From a virus: a stretch of 46,305 bases of DNA. The position numbers and the translations under genes were made by a program. The stretch lies in UHGV virus genome UHGV-1364013; one strand, given 5' to 3'. This document shows, one piece after another, positions 16,080 through 25,841 of the stretch. Positions within the stretch are counted from its first letter, which is position 1. Every line of letters begins with the position of its first letter. The notes beneath the pieces are model-generated. The model saw only the letters and a program-made list of their open reading frames with translations, was not told the DNA's origin and made no database searches.

Positions 16080-16419
16080 TCTGTCCTTGGGCTGGTTCAT
16101 GTTTGAGTGCCCAAGGTATTGTGAAATCTTCGGCCCCGGTGCGTGTGTTGGGGTATTTGACAAAAAGGAGTGTGTGGTCAACAACCCCTGCCTAAAGGCA
16201 GAGGCTTGATAAAAGCCTTGGTTGACTAGCCTCAGACCGCCCAAAAGGCGGACTACGTTGGTTGGGAATGCATAGGCACCGCGGGATGACAATCCTAGTC
16301 CCGCGCTCTGCGGTTCGCGGTTAAAAGCTCTGAGAGGTAGGAGCGGTGCCGCGAACAGGTAAACCCCTTCCAACATTGGCGAAGGATTACAACCGGTCGC
16401 AAGACCGAGGAGACAAATC
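16080..16419 (+). ncRNA. Structured non-coding region (many G.U-compatible hairpins, nested long-range pairing); candidate ncRNA
   Basis: Stems: ccttgggc/gcccaagg; ctgcc-taaa-ggcag; aggctt-gata-aagcct; ccgcc-caaaa-ggcgg; cgcggga/tcccgcg nested inside ggcaccgc/gcggtgcc. No convincing ORF. Confidence 0.35.
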
Positions 16420-16902
16420 TTGAGAGTATTTGTTTTAAACAAACGAGGGCAACCGCTGATGCCGTGCTCACCGGCAAAAGCGATGAGCACATACAGGGAA
16501 GAATCGTTGTCGGAAACACTGCAAGACATGTCCGACCGTTTCGGAAAGCCCTTTGTCCGGCACATGATTGAACGCTTCGCGGGTATAACTCTTATTATTC
16601 CCGTCAAAAGCCGGAAGACGCGGCTAGCTCGGGAATTGTGCACCTTCTTGGGGCAGGATGCCCTTTCCGACTTTCTGCACACCTATGGCGGTACGAGAAT
16701 CTATATCCCCACTTTGCGCCGGGCGAAGATCCGCGCACGGGACATGGACATCAACGCCGAGCGGGACGAGTTGGCTCGCAAGGGGCTGAGTGAAAGAGCG
16801 CTTGTCGCCAGGCTCGCCACGCTGCACGGGCTTTCCGAACGGCAGGTGTGGCGCATTTTAAAACAGCCGAGAACCTCGGACAACAGGGAGGCGGCGTCAT
16901 GA
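16420..16902 (+). CDS. Mor/C-family late transcriptional activator with an N-terminal 20-aa RRXRR/PLMP-like segment (TTG start)
   Basis: C-terminus YGGTRIYIPTLRR...ELARKGLSERALVARLATLHGLSERQVWRILKQ is Mor-like. N-terminus (L)RVFVLNKRGQPLMPCSPAKA. SD gaggag 7 nt before the TTG. Confidence 0.5.
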   Translation: MRVFVLNKRGQPLMPCSPAKAMSTYREESLSETLQDMSDRFGKPFVRHMIERFAGITLIIPVKSRKTRLARELCTFLGQDALSDFLHTYGGTRIYIPTLRRAKIRARDMDINAERDELARKGLSERALVARLATLHGLSERQVWRILKQPRTSDNREAAS

Positions 16903-19670: not shown

Positions 19671-20224
19671 TGGGAGTTGTGAGCATGGCGTCAAGATTTG
19701 ATTGGGAATCCATCCGTGCCGAGTACGAAGTAGGGGCGAGCCAGTCCGATCTGTCCAAGCGTTACGGTGTGAGCCGGACAGCCATCCAAAAGCGCATCCG
19801 GGCCGAGGGCTGGGTGCAGGACATTTCCGGCACCGTGAACCGCATGGCGGAGGCCAAGGTTGTGGGCGTGGTTGCAGGCTGCAACCCTCAAAAAAAGGCC
19901 GAAGCCTTGGACCGCGCCGCCGAAGCCAAGGCCGCCGTCATCACCCGCCACCAACGGGAGTGGGATCGACATCAGGCCCTCATTGATGAGGCGTTGTCCC
20001 TGGGCAGCTTCGACAAGGCCAAGCTCGCCAAAATCACAGCCGAGACGATCAAGATCCGGCAGGAGGGCGAGCGCAAGGCGTGGGGCATCGTTGACAAAGC
20101 CGCGTTGGATCACACTTCATCCGACGGTTCGCTATCTCAGCGTCCGGTGGATCTCTCGCACCTCTCTCCGGACGAGCTGCTTCGCCTGACAAAGGAAGCC
20201 TTCAAAACGCCGGATCATGAGTAG
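19670..20224 (+). CDS. terS: Terminase small subunit (HTH-containing); alternative ATG start at 19685
   Basis: Lies directly upstream of terL. N-terminal HTH LSKRYGVSRTAIQKRIR. Stop overlaps the terL start. Confidence 0.5.
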   Translation: MGVVSMASRFDWESIRAEYEVGASQSDLSKRYGVSRTAIQKRIRAEGWVQDISGTVNRMAEAKVVGVVAGCNPQKKAEALDRAAEAKAAVITRHQREWDRHQALIDEALSLGSFDKAKLAKITAETIKIRQEGERKAWGIVDKAALDHTSSDGSLSQRPVDLSHLSPDELLRLTKEAFKTPDHE

Positions 20225-23200
20225 CCCCGCCATCCTTTCCGATATCCGGAAGGCGCTGGCCCGGAGCTGTCTCGCGGCCTTCGTGCGCTACACCATGCCC
20301 GGCTACCGCATGGGATGGGTGCATGAGGAAATCTGTTCCGAGCTGGACGCCTTCCTTGCCGATGTCGTAGCTGGACGTTCCCCGCGCCTCATGCTGACCA
20401 TGCCCCCGCGACATGGGAAACTGTGCGCTGATGATACTCCTGTTTTGACGGTTGATGGGTGGAAAACTCATGGTGCGCTTAAGGTTGGTGATTATGTATT
20501 TCACCCAAGTGGCAAACCTGTGAGGGTTGTTGCTGTGGGCGAGAAAAATTTTGCCACTCATTCTGTTGTTTTTACCAATGGCGACATAATAGATGTGCAC
20601 CTTGATCATGAGTGGCGGGTGTATGACAGGACTAAACCCGGATATAGAACAGTTGAGACACGATACTTTGTGGAGCCAAGCAAAAAAACTAAGGCGCTTA
20701 GGAAGCTGGATAGCGGTATCCCAGACACCAGAGGGCACAGGTATTTGTATCAGGTGGACACAGCTGATGCTCCCCAATGGCCTGCCGTAGAACACGTTAT
20801 CCCGCCATACGTTTTGGGCGTGTGGTTAGGTGATGGAACGTCAATCGCGCCCAGAATAAACATGGCTCCTGATGACGCTTGTGTCGTCAAAATGGAGTTT
20901 GAACGACTAGGTGTGCCAATAACTGGAACATGGGTGCATAGAGATACTGGAGTTGAAACTTTTTCATTTGCCAGCGGCGTGAAAAATAGAAGAAATATAT
21001 TTTCGCAGGCTCTAAAAGATGCTGATCTGCTAAAAAATAAACATATTCCTAATGAGTACAAGCATGATAGCCTAGAAAACAGGCTTGACTTGCTTGCTGG
21101 ACTTATTGATACGGATGGTCATTTTGATAGAAAGACAAACAGATATCGTTTTACAACATCCAATGAGCTGTTAGCGCATGATGTAGAAGAATTGGCCATG
21201 CTATGCGGGTTTGTAGCGCATACAAATATCCCAGCACTAGATAATCGGGAAAGAACGATTAAAAATAAGTCACAGGTTTATGTGGTGTCATTTTTCTTTT
21301 CCGGTGTAGTTGTCCCGTGCAGACTTGAACGGAAAAAAGTTAATAAAACGTTTTCTTCTCTGCGTCGGCGCGTATCCATCAAATGTGTACGAGCGCTAGA
21401 GTCGCCTAAAATGGGGAATTGTATTCAGGTGGATAGTCCAGATGGCTTATATTTAGTTGGCAAACACCTTACGATAACCCACAATAGCGAGCTGGCCTCC
21501 CGCCGCTTCCCGGCCTACGCCTTGGGCCGCTACCCCGATCTATCCGTCATTTCAACGAGCTACGCCGCCGACCTGTCCTCGCGCATGAACCGCGATGTTC
21601 AGCGTGTCATCGACAGCCCGGAATACCGGGAACTCTTCCCGGGAACAGCCCTTTACGGCAAGAATATCCGCACCGTCGGGAACGGCTCTTATCTCCGCAA
21701 CTCGGATATCTTCGAAATCGTGGGGCACGCTGGCTGCTACCGTTCCGCTGGCGTGGGCGGCGGCATCACGGGCATGGGTGGGCATATCGTCATCGTCGAC
21801 GACCCGTTCAAGGACCGGGCGTCCGCCGATTCCCCGACCATCCGCCAGAACGTCTGGGACTGGTACACGTCCACGTTGTACACGCGCCTCGCGCCCGGTG
21901 GAGGGGTGCTCATCATCAACACTCGCTGGCACATGGCTGACCTTTCCGGGCGGCTGCTTGAGGCCGCCGCACGGGGGGAGGGCGACCACTGGCGCGTGGT
22001 AAACTTCCCGGCCATCGCCACGGAGGATGAGCCGCACCGCAAGGCAGGTGAAGCCTTACACCCTGAACGCTACCCGTTGGAGCAGCTTCTTGCCATCAAG
22101 AAAGCCCTCGGCACACGCGACTGGGAGGCCCTGTACCAGCAGCGGCCTACGCCAGACGGCGGCGCCATCTTCAAATCCGAGTGGCTGCGGTTCTGGCTCC
22201 CCAAAGACCTGCCGGAGCAGTTCGACCAGCTCCTTATCTCGTGGGATATGACGTTCAAGGACGGCGACGATACCGACTTTGTTGTGGGGCAGGTGTGGGG
22301 CCGCAAGGGGGCAGACCGCTACCTCCTCGATCAGGTCCGGCGGCGCATGGGATTTACGGACACGGTCGCCGCGTTCCGGGAGCTCGCCGCCAAATGGCCC
22401 GGCGCAGCCCGCAAGCTGGTGGAAGACAAGGCCAACGGCCCGGCGGTCATCGACGCGCTGAAACACGCCGTGCCCGGTATCATCCCCGTGGAGCCGGACG
22501 GCAGCAAGACGGCTCGCGCCCATGCTGTGACCACGTTCTTCGAGGCCGGGAACGTCCTTATCCCGCACCCTGAGCATTGCCCGTGGGCGCGGGAGTACGT
22601 CGCGGAACTGACGCAGTTCCCCGGAGCGCCCCACGACGATCAATGTTTTGCTGCAGGCACTTTAGTTGCGACTTTGCGAGGGGGTATCCCAATTGAAAAA
22701 GTAAAGGAAGGTGATTTTGTTGTGACTCCTCAAGGGTTTAGGCGTGTGTTGTTCGCTGGAAAAACCGGAGAGTCTGTGTTATTGTATCGACATGGAATTT
22801 TTGCAACTGCGAATCATCCGTTCATGAAAACCAGTGGAGAAGTTTGCAAATTTGCAGAAATAGAAAAGTCTGAACTTGTTCACATGACTATAAGGGAGTT
22901 GCTAGTATGGATATTCCGAAAAGAGTTGAATTTAATGGCGTCACCTATGCCCTCATGGCAGGGGGGAAATACTATCTTAGTCAGTCAAAAACAAACGCAG
23001 GTGGGAAAAATCCGAAGGGGCTTCATGTCGCTATTTGGGAATACTACAGTGGCAAGAAAGTCCCTAAAGGGTATGAGATTCATCACAAAGATGGTAATAC
23101 ACATAACAACAATTTTGACAACCTTGAGTGTTTATCACGTTGTGAACACCGCAAAACGGTTAAGCAAAACAAAGAAAAATGCCGTAAGCACCTTGAAGAA

Positions 23201-23717
23201 GTACGCCCTCTTGCTACTGAGTGGCACAGGAGCGAAGAAGGCCGTGCATGGCATCGAGAGCAAAGCAGGAAGGCATACGCAAAAAGAGAGTATACTGAGC
23301 ATGTTTGTGAGTACTGCGGCAAGACGTATAAAACGCGCCATACGGGAAAAAACCGCTTCTGTTCCCATAATTGTGAAATCAAATGGCGATATCACAATGA
23401 ATACGAGCTTGCCGAGGGTGTGTGCCAATGGTGCGGCAAACCGTTCACATACAAGACCGGAACCTGCAGAAAAAACAAAGTACGTAAATTCTGCAGCAAG
23501 TCTTGCAGCACAAGCCACTTCAACGCCCAACGCCGTGCCAGTGTATAACCTCACCGTAGAGGGCGAGCACCTTTATTTTGCTAATGGGGTGCTCGTCCAC
23601 AATTGTGACGCCACCACGCAGGCCCTCCGCGACTTCGATACCAAGCGGCCCATGTGCATCGACACCCGGATACTGCGCCAGCCGCGCATGGAGTTGAGGC
23701 GCATTGGGGGGATTTGA
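20217..23717 (+). CDS. terL: Terminase large subunit precursor with two inteins (mature protein about 493 aa)
   Basis: Exteins carry the P-loop PRHGK(L|S), the ATPase motif VIVDDPFKD and the nuclease domain. Intein boundaries are C...THN|S and C...VLVHN|C. Confidence 0.8.
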   Translation: MSSPAILSDIRKALARSCLAAFVRYTMPGYRMGWVHEEICSELDAFLADVVAGRSPRLMLTMPPRHGKLCADDTPVLTVDGWKTHGALKVGDYVFHPSGKPVRVVAVGEKNFATHSVVFTNGDIIDVHLDHEWRVYDRTKPGYRTVETRYFVEPSKKTKALRKLDSGIPDTRGHRYLYQVDTADAPQWPAVEHVIPPYVLGVWLGDGTSIAPRINMAPDDACVVKMEFERLGVPITGTWVHRDTGVETFSFASGVKNRRNIFSQALKDADLLKNKHIPNEYKHDSLENRLDLLAGLIDTDGHFDRKTNRYRFTTSNELLAHDVEELAMLCGFVAHTNIPALDNRERTIKNKSQVYVVSFFFSGVVVPCRLERKKVNKTFSSLRRRVSIKCVRALESPKMGNCIQVDSPDGLYLVGKHLTITHNSELASRRFPAYALGRYPDLSVISTSYAADLSSRMNRDVQRVIDSPEYRELFPGTALYGKNIRTVGNGSYLRNSDIFEIVGHAGCYRSAGVGGGITGMGGHIVIVDDPFKDRASADSPTIRQNVWDWYTSTLYTRLAPGGGVLIINTRWHMADLSGRLLEAAARGEGDHWRVVNFPAIATEDEPHRKAGEALHPERYPLEQLLAIKKALGTRDWEALYQQRPTPDGGAIFKSEWLRFWLPKDLPEQFDQLLISWDMTFKDGDDTDFVVGQVWGRKGADRYLLDQVRRRMGFTDTVAAFRELAAKWPGAARKLVEDKANGPAVIDALKHAVPGIIPVEPDGSKTARAHAVTTFFEAGNVLIPHPEHCPWAREYVAELTQFPGAPHDDQCFAAGTLVATLRGGIPIEKVKEGDFVVTPQGFRRVLFAGKTGESVLLYRHGIFATANHPFMKTSGEVCKFAEIEKSELVHMTIRELLVWIFRKELNLMASPMPSWQGGNTILVSQKQTQVGKIRRGFMSLFGNTTVARKSLKGMRFITKMVIHITTILTTLSVYHVVNTAKRLSKTKKNAVSTLKKYALLLLSGTGAKKAVHGIESKAGRHTQKESILSMFVSTAARRIKRAIREKTASVPIIVKSNGDITMNTSLPRVCANGAANRSHTRPEPAEKTKYVNSAASLAAQATSTPNAVPVYNLTVEGEHLYFANGVLVHNCDATTQALRDFDTKRPMCIDTRILRQPRMELRRIGGI
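20424..21485 (+). mobile_element. Intein 1 (354 aa) with a LAGLIDADG homing-endonuclease domain, inserted in the terminase Walker-A loop
   Basis: Starts CADDTPVLTVDGW. Contains LDLLAGLIDTDGHF. Ends ITHN followed by +1 Ser. AT-rich relative to its flanks. Confidence 0.75.
22644..23603 (+). mobile_element. Intein 2 (320 aa) in the terminase nuclease domain
   Basis: Starts CFAAGTLVATLRGGIPIEKVKEGDFVVT. Ends GEHLYFANGVLVHN followed by +1 Cys. AT-rich. Confidence 0.7.
22907..23548 (+). CDS. HNH endonuclease ORF nested out-of-frame inside intein 2
   Basis: HHKDGNTHNNNFDNLECLSRCEHRKT is an HNH motif. C-terminal CxxCGK..RFCSxxC repeats. Frame offset +2 relative to terL. Confidence 0.65.
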   Translation: MDIPKRVEFNGVTYALMAGGKYYLSQSKTNAGGKNPKGLHVAIWEYYSGKKVPKGYEIHHKDGNTHNNNFDNLECLSRCEHRKTVKQNKEKCRKHLEEVRPLATEWHRSEEGRAWHREQSRKAYAKREYTEHVCEYCGKTYKTRHTGKNRFCSHNCEIKWRYHNEYELAEGVCQWCGKPFTYKTGTCRKNKVRKFCSKSCSTSHFNAQRRASV

Positions 23718-23810: not shown

Positions 23811-24227
23811 TTAATTGGGCGTTCGTTGAGCTTCGATATACTGCCGCAGGACAGAGATAGGCGCTCCTCCGCAGCTTCCAGCAAAATAACTTGGCGACCA
23901 GAGTGAACCGCCCCAGAGTTTTTTCTGGATCGAAGGATAGCCTTTCTTGCGAATCAGCCTGCTGGATACGCCTTTCAGGCTGTTGACCAAAGACGAAATG
24001 GCTACTTTTGGAGGATAGACGACAAGCAGATGAACATGATCGTCTTCCCCGTCAAATTCAATAAGTTCCGCCTCAAAATCACGGCAAACACTGGCAAATA
24101 TTTCCTTCAAGTCGTCAAGAATGACCTTTGTGAAGACGCCATAGCGATACTTTGTAACAAAGACCAAATGGGCATGAAGAAGGAATACGCAGTGTCTTCC
24201 AGTACGAATATCGTTGACTTTTTTCAT
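23811..24227 (-). CDS. tnpA: IS200/IS605 Y1 HUH transposase TnpA
   Basis: HUH motif HVHLLV and catalytic Tyr region SPSYF. 138 aa. Confidence 0.85.
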   Translation of the reverse strand: MKKVNDIRTGRHCVFLLHAHLVFVTKYRYGVFTKVILDDLKEIFASVCRDFEAELIEFDGEDDHVHLLVVYPPKVAISSLVNSLKGVSSRLIRKKGYPSIQKKLWGGSLWSPSYFAGSCGGAPISVLRQYIEAQRTPN

Positions 24228-24241
24228 AGGCCAACTATGAT

Positions 24242-25450
24242 TTGGCTATGGAAAGATTGCAAGCCTACAAGTTCCAGCTCCGCCCCAAAGCTGAGCAGGA
24301 AAGCCTCATGCGGCGTTTTGCCGGATGTTGTCGTTTCCTTTGGAACAAGGCGCTTGCATTGGAAAAAGAGACCTATGAAAAGGAAGGGAAGCGTCTGGGG
24401 TTTTCCTTGCTCTGCGAAGCCCTTCGGGACTGGAAGAAGGAAAACGACACATCTTTTCTTGCTGAAGCCCATTCTCAAATTCTGCAACAAGCGTTGAAAG
24501 ATCTCGATAGGGCCTACAAAAATTTCTTTGCCAGGCGTGCGGATTTTCCGCGTTTCAAGAGAAAGGGGGTTCATGACGCCTTTCGCTATCCGCAAGGTTT
24601 CAAGCTCGATGAAGGCAACAGTCGCATATTTCTACCTAAAATTGGGTGGGTACGCTACCGCAACAGTCGTAAAATAGAGGGAACACCGAAACAGGTGACA
24701 GTTTCTTTGTCCGCAGGGAAATGGTTTGTTTCTATTCAGACGGAACGAGAAATTCTTGAACCGGTGCATCCTTCGCAAAATATTGTTGGCATAGACATGG
24801 GAGTTGCGCGTTTTGCAACGCTCTCCGATGGTTCTTGCATCAAACCGCTGCACAGTTTCCGAAAGCATGAAAAGAAGCTGGCAAAGCTGCAACGCAAATT
24901 GGCAAAACGAGTGAAGTTTTCCGCCAGCTGGCAGAAGCTCAAAGCCAAAATACAGCGCCTGCACCGTACAATAGCCAATGTACGCAACGATTTTCTGCAC
25001 AAGACAACAACGATGATCAGCAAAAACCACGCTCTTGTCGTGATTGAAGATTTGAAAGTGCGGAATATGTCGCGTTCGGCTTCCGGTACGCTTGAAGTTC
25101 CGGGCAAAAATGTGCGCGCCAAGTCCGGCTTGAACAAGTCCATACTGGATCAGGGATGGTTCGAGTTTCGGCGGCAGCTTGAGTACAAGTTGAAATGGCT
25201 GGGTGGAAAGCTGGTTGTCATACCTCCGCAGTATACCAGTCAGACATGCAGTCATTGTGGATGCGTAGACAGAGCAAACAGACCAACGCAGGCGAAATTC
25301 AAATGTACGGCCTGCGGATTTGAATGTAACGCCGACCATAATGCGGCGTTGAACATTCTGGCGGCCGGGCAGGCCGTGACAGCCTGTGGAGCGGGAAGGG
25401 CTCAAGCGCCCGCATTGAAGCAGGAACCCGCCTATGGCGCGGCTCGTTAG
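24242..25450 (+). CDS. tnpB: TnpB (OrfB_IS605; RuvC-like RNA-guided nuclease with a Zn ribbon)
   Basis: RuvC motifs GIDMG, VIEDLKV and NADHNAALNI. Zn ribbon CSHCGC...CTACG. Confidence 0.85.
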   Translation: MAMERLQAYKFQLRPKAEQESLMRRFAGCCRFLWNKALALEKETYEKEGKRLGFSLLCEALRDWKKENDTSFLAEAHSQILQQALKDLDRAYKNFFARRADFPRFKRKGVHDAFRYPQGFKLDEGNSRIFLPKIGWVRYRNSRKIEGTPKQVTVSLSAGKWFVSIQTEREILEPVHPSQNIVGIDMGVARFATLSDGSCIKPLHSFRKHEKKLAKLQRKLAKRVKFSASWQKLKAKIQRLHRTIANVRNDFLHKTTTMISKNHALVVIEDLKVRNMSRSASGTLEVPGKNVRAKSGLNKSILDQGWFEFRRQLEYKLKWLGGKLVVIPPQYTSQTCSHCGCVDRANRPTQAKFKCTACGFECNADHNAALNILAAGQAVTACGAGRAQAPALKQEPAYGAAR

Positions 25451-25841
25451 AGCCGCTACCGATAGGAATCCCCCGACTTTAGGCGGGGGAGGATGTCAAC
25501 CCAGTACTATGTAGCCTGCTGTAATGGTAGACTATTTTTTTTGAAATCGTAACCCCTCCGTACCTTGACTTCTTCCAGCTTTTGTGCTGTTCTTTTTTCA
25601 CGGTGCTTCAAAACACCTTCGCTGGCGGTAGCCAACCCCGAAACGTGGCCTTTTTTGTGCCCTGTCAAGACTTGTATCCTCTTGGCTGTGGTGTATCCTA
25701 CGGACATTGACTCCGGGTGTGGGCTAATACAATACCGATTCGTCGGGAATATGCCCGCTGTCCAGCGACAGTTTTGAGCACCCGGAGTTTTGCTATTTTG
25801 GCGGCTCCAATGAAAGGTGTCCGACATCCATGCACCCGAAC

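Follow-up and report, generated by a model that had tools for sequence, protein, structure and literature searches.

How can one stretch of DNA within an essential gene be read in two overlapping frames, and what keeps both of them open? This question is raised by the gene of the large terminase subunit (terL) in the viral genome UHGV-1364013, for which the whole stretch of 46,305 nucleotides (nt) was analysed (called the window in the following). The second intein of this gene (intein 2) contains an open reading frame (ORF) for an HNH endonuclease of 213 amino acids (aa) that is not in frame with the intein. An earlier note, made from the sequence alone, had suggested that either the intein was invaded by a free-standing HNH gene while selection kept the intein frame (frame 0) open, or that the endonuclease is expressed by frameshifting or by independent initiation. 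Our analysis favours a homing endonuclease gene of the free-standing, terL-targeting type that sits inside a mini-intein and has its own start of translation, a reading to which we assign a probability of roughly 0.8. The proposed invasion gains support from mini-intein and free-standing relatives as well as from a codon-context signature, all detailed below.

An HNH Gene in the Second Frame of an Intein

The 213-aa ORF lies out of frame within intein 2 exactly where it had been located, and the terL frame shows no stop throughout 22644-23603, i.e., it is continuous with the host gene. Counted per frame, intein 2 contains 0 stops in the terL frame, 6 in the HNH frame (none within the ORF) and 30 in the third frame. 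The ORF is offset by 2 nt and thus in the -1 frame of terL. It exactly fills the place in the Hint fold where endonucleases are inserted, with one half of the splicing domain on either side, and its stop codon TAA is formed from the Tyr-Asn codons of intein block F (VYNLTVE).

The HNH motif and zinc ribbons that had been noticed in this frame are borne out by profile and alignment data. The protein matches Pfam HNH_3 (PF13392) with E=1.3e-15 (57.1 bits, cut-off 24.8); no Endonuclease_7 match is listed at E up to 0.1, so HNH_3 is the sole endonuclease type in the Pfam results for the window's protein. In an alignment of 68 HNH homologues, H60, N72 and H81 are invariant, and the same holds for all eight Cys of the two CxxC...CxxxC ribbons. 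The zinc-ribbon region, modelled by AlphaFold2 with a pLDDT (predicted local distance difference test) score above 90 (mean of the whole model 92.5), is likely the DNA-binding module. The top fold match in the PDB is I-HmuI (1u3e), which is weak (Foldseek probability 0.91, E=0.07, template modelling score 0.25-0.30) because the model is extended and consists of several modules; it is used merely to back the HNH_3 assignment.

Chance or Selection

For raw composition, the absence of stops is indeed very improbable, as the earlier note had stated: mononucleotide shuffles yield on average 12.3 terL-frame stops over 213 codons, with P(0) of about 4.5e-6. The statement is overstated nevertheless, since no other relative frame is as easy to keep open. 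If the HNH protein is fixed and codons are drawn from context-free usage, 4.2-4.4 stops are expected and P(0) is about 0.003. The expectation is lower because host-frame stops can then arise only where NTA is followed by A or G, or NTG by A, i.e., the risk in the -1 arrangement is limited to codons after Leu, Ile, Val or Met. That is, the window taken alone is just moderately improbable once the HNH protein is fixed. A shuffle of the gene's own synonymous codons gave P=0.016, but was dropped as a weak null model given that the codon set is already adapted; it was replaced by context-free usage and by the free-standing relatives, for which the corresponding frame of 11 HNH homologues contains 4-8 stops.

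The decisive evidence comes from sequence comparison with homologous genes. With relatives from IMG/VR and GTDB genomes added, 89 out of 104 distinct HNH genes are without any host-frame stop and lie inside ORFs of 700-1450 aa; 87 of these 89 nested genes are distinct from the window's, and the HNH ORF is intact in all 89 down to about 28% identity. Their codon usage depends on the context. Leu, Ile and Val are never encoded by NTA codons before codons starting with A or G (0% of 1149), while 30% of 1162 are before codons starting with C or T; the non-nested relatives show 29% and 28%, respectively. Likewise, an internal Met followed by an A-starting codon is observed in 0/125 cases in nested genes vs. 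28/75 in non-nested ones. Selection for an open host frame is thus directly visible, namely as context-dependent avoidance of stops. Since TerL is essential, a terL-frame stop inside the HNH gene would be lethal, which would force such a synonymous codon choice.

A comparison of codon positions in both frames, which the earlier note had proposed as a check, shows that changes concentrate at HNH position 3. Compared to a related HNH gene from a different phage (L007, see below), the window's gene differs by 0.18/0.17/0.53 at the nucleotides of HNH codon positions 1/2/3, and the amino-acid identity is 74% in the HNH frame but 41% in the terL frame. The same pattern is found in every identity bin, which points to purifying selection on the protein of the HNH frame and none on the intein linker.

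This linker, i.e., the terL-frame reading of the HNH gene, had been described as unstructured-looking, in agreement with its model. In the AlphaFold2 prediction of the 320-aa intein 2, pLDDT values are 83-95 for residues 1-80 (a beta-rich N lobe) and 73-93 for residues 290-320 (the C lobe being 298-320), but below 50 at 96-177, 190-215 and 236-286 and thus for most of 96-290. Furthermore, several TerL mini-inteins (P0126-P0129, P0133, P0135) pass from the N lobe directly to VYNLTV with no linker at all. Low pLDDT and linker-free relatives together suggest that the linker is a tolerated, unstructured tether with the absence of stops as its sole constraint. Given its own start, its different frame and the mini-intein relatives that are without the insert, the HNH protein is not a simple in-frame intein domain, as had been suspected.

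The terL Gene and Its Inteins

All features are listed in Table 1. The terL product matches Terminase_6N (6.8e-15) and Terminase_6C (4.3e-12) in Pfam, and its spliced form is predicted to have 492 aa. Intein 1 is located in the Walker-A loop (PPRHGKL/C...HN/SE, slashes marking splice junctions) and is separate from the dual-coding element.

Intein 2 splits the nuclease motif of TerL (PHDDQ/CDATT), 37 codons before the terL stop. The residues expected for a class-1 intein (Cys1, block B, HN plus Cys) are all present and near-invariant in the alignment, namely Cys1 (TGT at 22644), block B TANH (22806-22817), the terminal HN (23598-23603) and the +1 Cys at 23604, with the C-terminal end reading VLVHN/C (23589-23606). 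Within the whole TerL, Pfam reports Hint_2 with 33.2 bits (cut-off 28.4), while Intein_splicing stays under its cut-off (23-25 vs. 35.8 bits). The GC content is 45% for intein 2 and 64% for the exteins. Since TerL is essential and the insertion lies inside its nuclease motif HDDQ/xDATT, intein 2 is expected to undergo protein splicing.

Table 1. Features of the terL locus in the window (all coordinates refer to the whole stretch).
Feature	Position	Strand	Details
terL (large terminase subunit) precursor	20217..23717	+	single ORF, 1166 aa, two inteins
Intein 1 of terL	20424..21485	+	354 aa, conventional in-frame LAGLIDADG; Pfam LAGLIDADG_3, Hom_end
Intein 2	22644..23603	+	320 aa, class-1 type, terL frame; site HDDQ/C-DATT
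Hint N-terminal lobe	22644..22906	+	intein residues 1 to ~88; conserved blocks; pLDDT 83-95 (1-80)
HNH-frame stop TGA	22871..22873	+	11 codons upstream of ATG; closes the frame toward the N-terminal intein part
Shine-Dalgarno-like AAGGGAG	22892..22898	+	GGAG ends 8 nt before ATG 22907; Arg-Glu in terL frame
HNH homing-endonuclease gene	22907..23548	+	213 aa, ATG 22907, TAA 23546-23548; -1 frame vs. terL
Intein 2 linker	22908..23534	+	residues ~89-297; terL-frame read-through of the HNH gene
HNH catalytic core	23018..23152	+	HNH residues 38-82; His59/His60, Asn72, His81; Pfam HNH_3
Two predicted zinc ribbons	23306..23506	+	C134/C137/C152/C156 and C173/C176/C196/C200
Hint C-terminal lobe	23535..23603	+	blocks F and G (PVYNLTVEGEHLYFANGVLVHN); near-invariant residues; pLDDT 73-93
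+1 Cys codon of C-extein	23604..23606	+	TGT; GTG (Val) in intein-less alleles L172-L179

Relatives and Evolutionary States of the Family

The same layout is found in contigs of six other assemblies (L003-L006, L008, L031) with a 99% identical HNH gene and an open frame 0. Frame-0 stops in close relatives, named in the earlier note as an observation that would speak against dual coding, are thus absent from all six. A different phage (L007) carries a 75% identical HNH gene at the same position. Its terL (824 aa) is related to the window's but without intein 1, i.e., the two inteins are distributed independently. Among isolated phages, Clostridium phage phiCDHM19 shares with the window both the intein at this TerL site and the out-of-frame HNH gene within it, and the two-frame arrangement recurs in phage TJE1. 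In Clostridium phage phiCD119 (L002, NC_007917), terL is annotated at 201-2595 as three coding sequences (ter1, ter2, ORF3), where ORF3 passes from the HNH frame at its start to the terL frame at its end. Since terL is continuous (799 aa) in the sister phage phiCDHM19, the three pieces probably result from frameshift errors in the deposited sequence; phiCD119 was set aside as evidence for this reason.

Across the nested loci, splicing residues are well preserved: Cys1 in 80/81 loci with complete upstream sequence, block B in 85/89, and Asn followed by Cys or Ser in block G in 86/89, with a median intein length of 319 aa. The carriers, both phages and prophages, come from many bacterial phyla as well as from some archaea. 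Hosts given in the records include Sutterella, Nostoc, Oscillospiraceae, Planctomycetales, Selenomonadaceae, Prevotella, Bacteroides, Nitrospiraceae, Corynebacterium and Patescibacteria as well as the archaeal Methanomethylophilaceae and Nitrosotalea.

Beside the nested state in one frame, three further states are found, i.e., free-standing at the terL 3' end, nested in the other frame, and fused in frame within NrdJ. All 11 free-standing HNH homologues abut the 3' end of terL, two of them in convergent orientation on the opposite strand; they include genes annotated as 'HNH endonuclease' in Pseudomonas phage PAE1, Lactobacillus phage CL2 and Salmonella phage Shemara. Together with the position of the intein site close to the terL stop, this suggests that the HNH family as a whole targets the terL 3' region. 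Nesting in the other relative frame is observed in the TerL inteins of L087 (3968-4486) and L110 (2334-2855), whose host frame has 0 stops although about 20 are the average for this frame in the family. By BLASTP, both are closest to free-standing HNH genes, which suggests an independent invasion, while the free-standing genes L095 and L036 are closest to nested ones (best BLASTP neighbours). This cross-neighbour pattern implies several transitions. Finally, an NrdJ intein of Saccharibacteria (L121, L123) holds a family member with 27% identity as an in-frame endonuclease domain; the host protein (L121, 2567-6049) is a class II ribonucleotide reductase of 1160 aa with a canonical intein. These two in-frame NrdJ copies aside, all examined family members are located in or directly beside terL.

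The findings are compatible with an old and widespread family in which a TerL mini-intein and an HNH_3 gene coexist as a two-frame unit across bacterial and archaeal viruses, with every proposed evolutionary state caught and with lineages differing in expression; we regard the chances for and against this broader view as evenly balanced. If it is true, the family provides direct comparative support for an origin of mobile inteins in which the splicing domain came first and the endonuclease invaded later.

Expression of the HNH Gene

The earlier note had left open whether the endonuclease is made by frameshifting or by independent initiation. The latter is the best-supported route, as the gene has its own Shine-Dalgarno motif and ATG, an upstream stop in its frame, and start signals that are enriched among relatives; frameshifting is disfavoured (see next section). 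Most relatives have a stop in the HNH frame 0-11 codons ahead of the start, many of them 0-4 codons ahead, and the first residue of free-standing relatives is the homologous Met. A Shine-Dalgarno motif of 5 nt or more is present upstream of 29/88 nested HNH starts (33%), compared to 8% of the controls, for which we used random positions in the same host ORFs. The window's start is of the Shine-Dalgarno type, such that the last codons of the Hint N-terminal lobe double as the HNH ribosome-binding site.

A second subset (18/88 starts vs. 3.4% of controls) shows a -10 hexamer that ends 3-12 nt upstream of the start. The extended form TGnTATAAT precedes 9/88 HNH starts, nearly always by exactly 6 nt from the ATG, but only 1/1600 controls. 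Loci with TGnTATAAT-like signals include L038, L040, L042, L043, L051, L072, L073, L074, L102 and L115. Read in terL frame, the element codes for the Hint motif RYGDII. TGnTATAAT-N6-ATG has the geometry of a leaderless HNH mRNA, possibly made from a promoter within the RYGDII codons. Lineages thus appear to solve HNH expression differently, either via a Shine-Dalgarno motif inside the intein or via such a leaderless promoter. For the window itself, no internal promoter is claimed.

Mobility and Proposed Mechanism

Searching with the spliced C-terminal part of TerL, we found terL alleles with 92-97% nucleotide identity that contain neither intein nor HNH gene (L172-L179). Their site reads CACGACGACCAA/GTGGACGCC, i.e., PHDDQ/VDATT with Val rather than Cys at +1; the empty-site sequence of L172 and L175 is CCCCACGACGACCAAGTGGACGCCACA. 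Among 80 TerL relatives with 52-99% identity, an HNH homologue is present within 3 kb only for the 10 that are interrupted at the site. By identity, these ten form two separate classes, at 99% and at 59-61%, and empty alleles lie between them. Such a patchy and strictly intein-coupled distribution is the pattern of a homing element, and the close empty alleles provide the sporadic presence typical of a homing endonuclease gene. Another locus (L252, 652-4107) has terL in three ORFs, broken by two NUMOD4/HNH_3 genes unrelated to the window's HNH family, as well as a mini-intein at the same nuclease-motif site; it exemplifies terL as a hotspot for several unrelated homing elements.

Intein 2 would thus be a composite selfish element of two genes that share their DNA in two reading frames. 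The mini-intein would be translated within TerL, its two Hint lobes folding around the linker of about 200 residues, and would splice itself out such that the TerL nuclease motif is restored with Cys replacing Val at +1. The HNH_3 endonuclease would be translated separately from its own Shine-Dalgarno motif and ATG inside the terL mRNA and could cut the intein-less terL of related phages, be they co-infecting or resident, at or close to CACGACGACCAA/GTGGACGCC. On repair by recombination, the cut allele would receive a copy of the intein, the HNH gene and the +1 Cys codon. Both open frames and their conservation, the traces of selection, the predicted folds, the presence or absence of the element among alleles and its association with terL are seen in the data, while splicing, initiation within the mRNA, the specificity of cleavage and homing are what we infer from sequence comparison, by which we consider the core of the mechanism (splicing mini-intein, separately translated HNH, avoidance of stops) well supported. 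For the first entry, one may speculate about a split-intein ('fractured gene') intermediate as described by Dassa et al. 2009 (PMC2677866).

Several points weigh against this reading. Related loci share ancestry and are not statistically independent, and retrieval patterns were mostly derived from nested members such that the ratio of nested to free-standing genes is biased. The window's own Shine-Dalgarno motif is merely moderate (GGAG, or AAGGGAG with a bulge), and its promoter scan yields one weak hit that overlaps the ATG, with 0.9 expected by chance. No free-standing family HNH gene was found beside a mini-intein terL in the three loci examined, i.e., there is no 'collaborative' homing intermediate among them. 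The first entry of a gene with 4-8 host-frame stops into an essential gene is a difficulty for this reading, and splicing, HNH translation and cleavage are all deduced from the DNA.

Alternative Explanations

The arrangement could be an artefact, where two compensating sequencing or assembly indels displaced an in-frame HNH domain. In-frame HNH homologues do exist in the Saccharibacteria NrdJ intein, and phiCD119, with its terL in three pieces and an ORF3 that switches frame, shows what such errors look like. But the concern about paired indels raised by the earlier note is refuted by six other assemblies and another 87 distinct genes, all with the identical out-of-frame layout; the HNH gene has its own start codon with a stop 11 codons upstream, and a codon-context bias arises solely by selection on real sequence. 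The expectation that in-frame homologues would imply indels fails as well, given that the NrdJ copies (27% identity) are another state of the family and imply no error. An artefact thus has next to no probability. It is also unlikely, if less drastically so, that the HNH gene is a decaying relic, unexpressed or inactive, whose ORF stays open by inertia while selection acts on the terL frame only. Decay of the endonuclease after fixation is what the theory of the homing cycle predicts, truncated or disrupted HNH ORFs are indeed present at L094, L039, L100 and L104, and HNH expression is deduced from the sequence. Still, a relic does not fit an ORF that is intact in 89 distinct genes to about 28% identity, with invariant catalytic His/Asn/His and eight Cys, with substitutions concentrated at HNH codon position 3, and with conserved start signals; moreover, the closely related empty alleles imply recent gain or loss.

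With regard to expression, programmed -1 frameshifting could yield the HNH protein as a fusion of N-extein, N-intein and HNH. The HNH gene is in the -1 frame of terL, phages make use of -1 frameshifting, and ribosomes traverse the region anyway. We nevertheless deem this very improbable: the TGA upstream leaves just a 33-nt window before the ATG, in which no slippery heptamer (X XXY YYZ) was seen on reading, in many relatives the HNH-frame stop is as close as 0-4 codons, and both the enriched signals at the HNH start (Shine-Dalgarno or TGnTATAAT-N6-ATG) and the homologous Met of free-standing relatives argue for initiation at the start codon. With regard to function, HNH proteins beside terminase genes are known packaging components, and the location of the examined family members in or directly beside terL (the two NrdJ copies excepted) could mean that the HNH protein is a domesticated packaging factor that works with the terminase like HK97 gp74-type proteins rather than in homing. 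A packaging HNH of the gp74 type would be expected consistently beside the terminase in related phages, which is not the case here, as 70 of the 80 TerL relatives, including the 92-97% identical alleles, lack an HNH homologue within 3 kb, i.e., this type of TerL packages without one. Further evidence against a packaging role, which we consider quite improbable, are the one-to-one coupling of HNH presence to the intein and the resulting patchy distribution, the homing type of the protein (HNH_3, I-HmuI-like), and the two free-standing copies on the opposite strand.

Relation to Known Systems

Two-frame inteins are already reported with other endonuclease types. In actinobacteriophages, inteins (some in terL) contain an endonuclease VII-like gene in 'frame 3', or antisense LAGLIDADG or VSR-like genes, for which an invasion by free-standing endonuclease genes was proposed (Gosselin, Arsenault and Gogarten, bioRxiv 10.1101/2025.01.02.630785). 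The window's locus shares with them the full intein, the same-strand endonuclease ORF between splicing blocks and the unstructured-looking host-frame translation. In contrast, their same-strand endonuclease is VII-like (IPR004211) and called rare, while ours is of type HNH_3 with two zinc ribbons and belongs to a family that reaches across many bacterial phyla and archaea. The 22 phage records that match the window's HNH gene include no phage of Mycobacterium, Gordonia or Arthrobacter, i.e., no PhagesDB-type actinophage. Cyanobacterial dnaX inteins carry a LAGLIDADG endonuclease in a +2 ORF, and selection acts on their two frames in the same way (Phillips et al., bioRxiv 10.64898/2026.09.14.751524). 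Here as there, an overlapping-frame endonuclease is under purifying selection while the intein frame is relaxed, and mini-inteins and empty alleles coexist; secondary invasion of a mini-intein was proposed by Phillips et al. The systems differ in that theirs is a LAGLIDADG in a cellular gene and ours an HNH in a phage terminase. That is, the window's layout matches the non-canonical inteins of the 2025-2026 preprints, but its endonuclease type does not.

The ShiLan domain of phage DNA methylases (Arsenault et al. 2025, PMC11855218) also combines an alternate-frame HNH gene with an insert that is stop-free in the host frame and has the HNH stop in its last bases, and translation initiation is a question there, too. 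Unlike the window's insert, which is inside a complete intein and presumably spliced out, ShiLan is without splicing domains and stays in the protein. In fractured genes of phage type with split inteins, including a terminase, a free-standing endonuclease gene is likewise found at the endonuclease insertion point of the intein, with slightly overlapping coding regions (Dassa et al. 2009, PMC2677866). Those loci consist of two ORFs with trans-splicing and GIY-YIG or Vsr-like endonucleases, whereas the window's terL is one ORF. I-HmuI is of the same catalytic family (HNH_3) and the best, though weak, fold match, but is encoded in a group I intron. Compared to canonical HNH inteins, where the nuclease is part of the intein polypeptide, the window encodes a separate polypeptide in an overlapping frame.

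No description of the HNH_3/TerL-intein family was found in a literature search of incomplete coverage, for which absence is no proof. The breadth of the family, its codon-context signature, the exclusive terL linkage, the two nesting frames along with free-standing and in-frame states, and the possible leaderless promoters may therefore be new.

Implications for Intein Evolution and Annotation

The origin of intein endonucleases is a long-standing question, for which the HNH family offers many natural intermediates of one lineage as well as a measurable selection signature of overlapping frames. With these, the invasion model can be tested, both comparatively and in simple experiments. Protein and genome engineering may also benefit from inteins in which an unstructured insert of about 200 residues is tolerated and from compact zinc-ribbon HNH nucleases.

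Annotation is affected, since gene callers pick the HNH ORF and spurious minus-strand ORFs over the long terL (e.g., L003, 3344-6808). A protein-database search with the 320-aa frame-0 intein resulted in 18 hits, which still yielded the mini-intein relatives; the low number is due to the fast divergence of the linker and to the terL ORFs missed by gene callers. Terminases that carry the HNH element are thus largely missing from protein databases, and their phages are easily mis-annotated, as if terL were truncated or split and accompanied by a separate 'HNH endonuclease'.

Other Elements in the Window

An Rfam match to HEARO, the IscB-associated omega-RNA family, is located at 16177-16393 (+) with 141 bits (gathering score 83). 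No IscB gene follows; the next ORF (16420-16902) joins a 21-residue RRXRR-like N-terminus to a Mor-family transcription activator. The match appears to be a guide RNA left as an orphan or a remnant, within what looks like the late-control region of a Mu-like phage.

An IS200/IS605 element (23811-25795) with tnpA at 23811-24227 (-) and tnpB at 24242-25450 (+) is situated between terL and the portal gene. The Rfam match to sRNA-Xcc1 just 3' of tnpB (25711-25795) may be the tnpB guide-RNA or right-end region. In place of this element, the phage contig L003 (99% identical) carries a P22_AR_N gene, which indicates that the insertion is recent.

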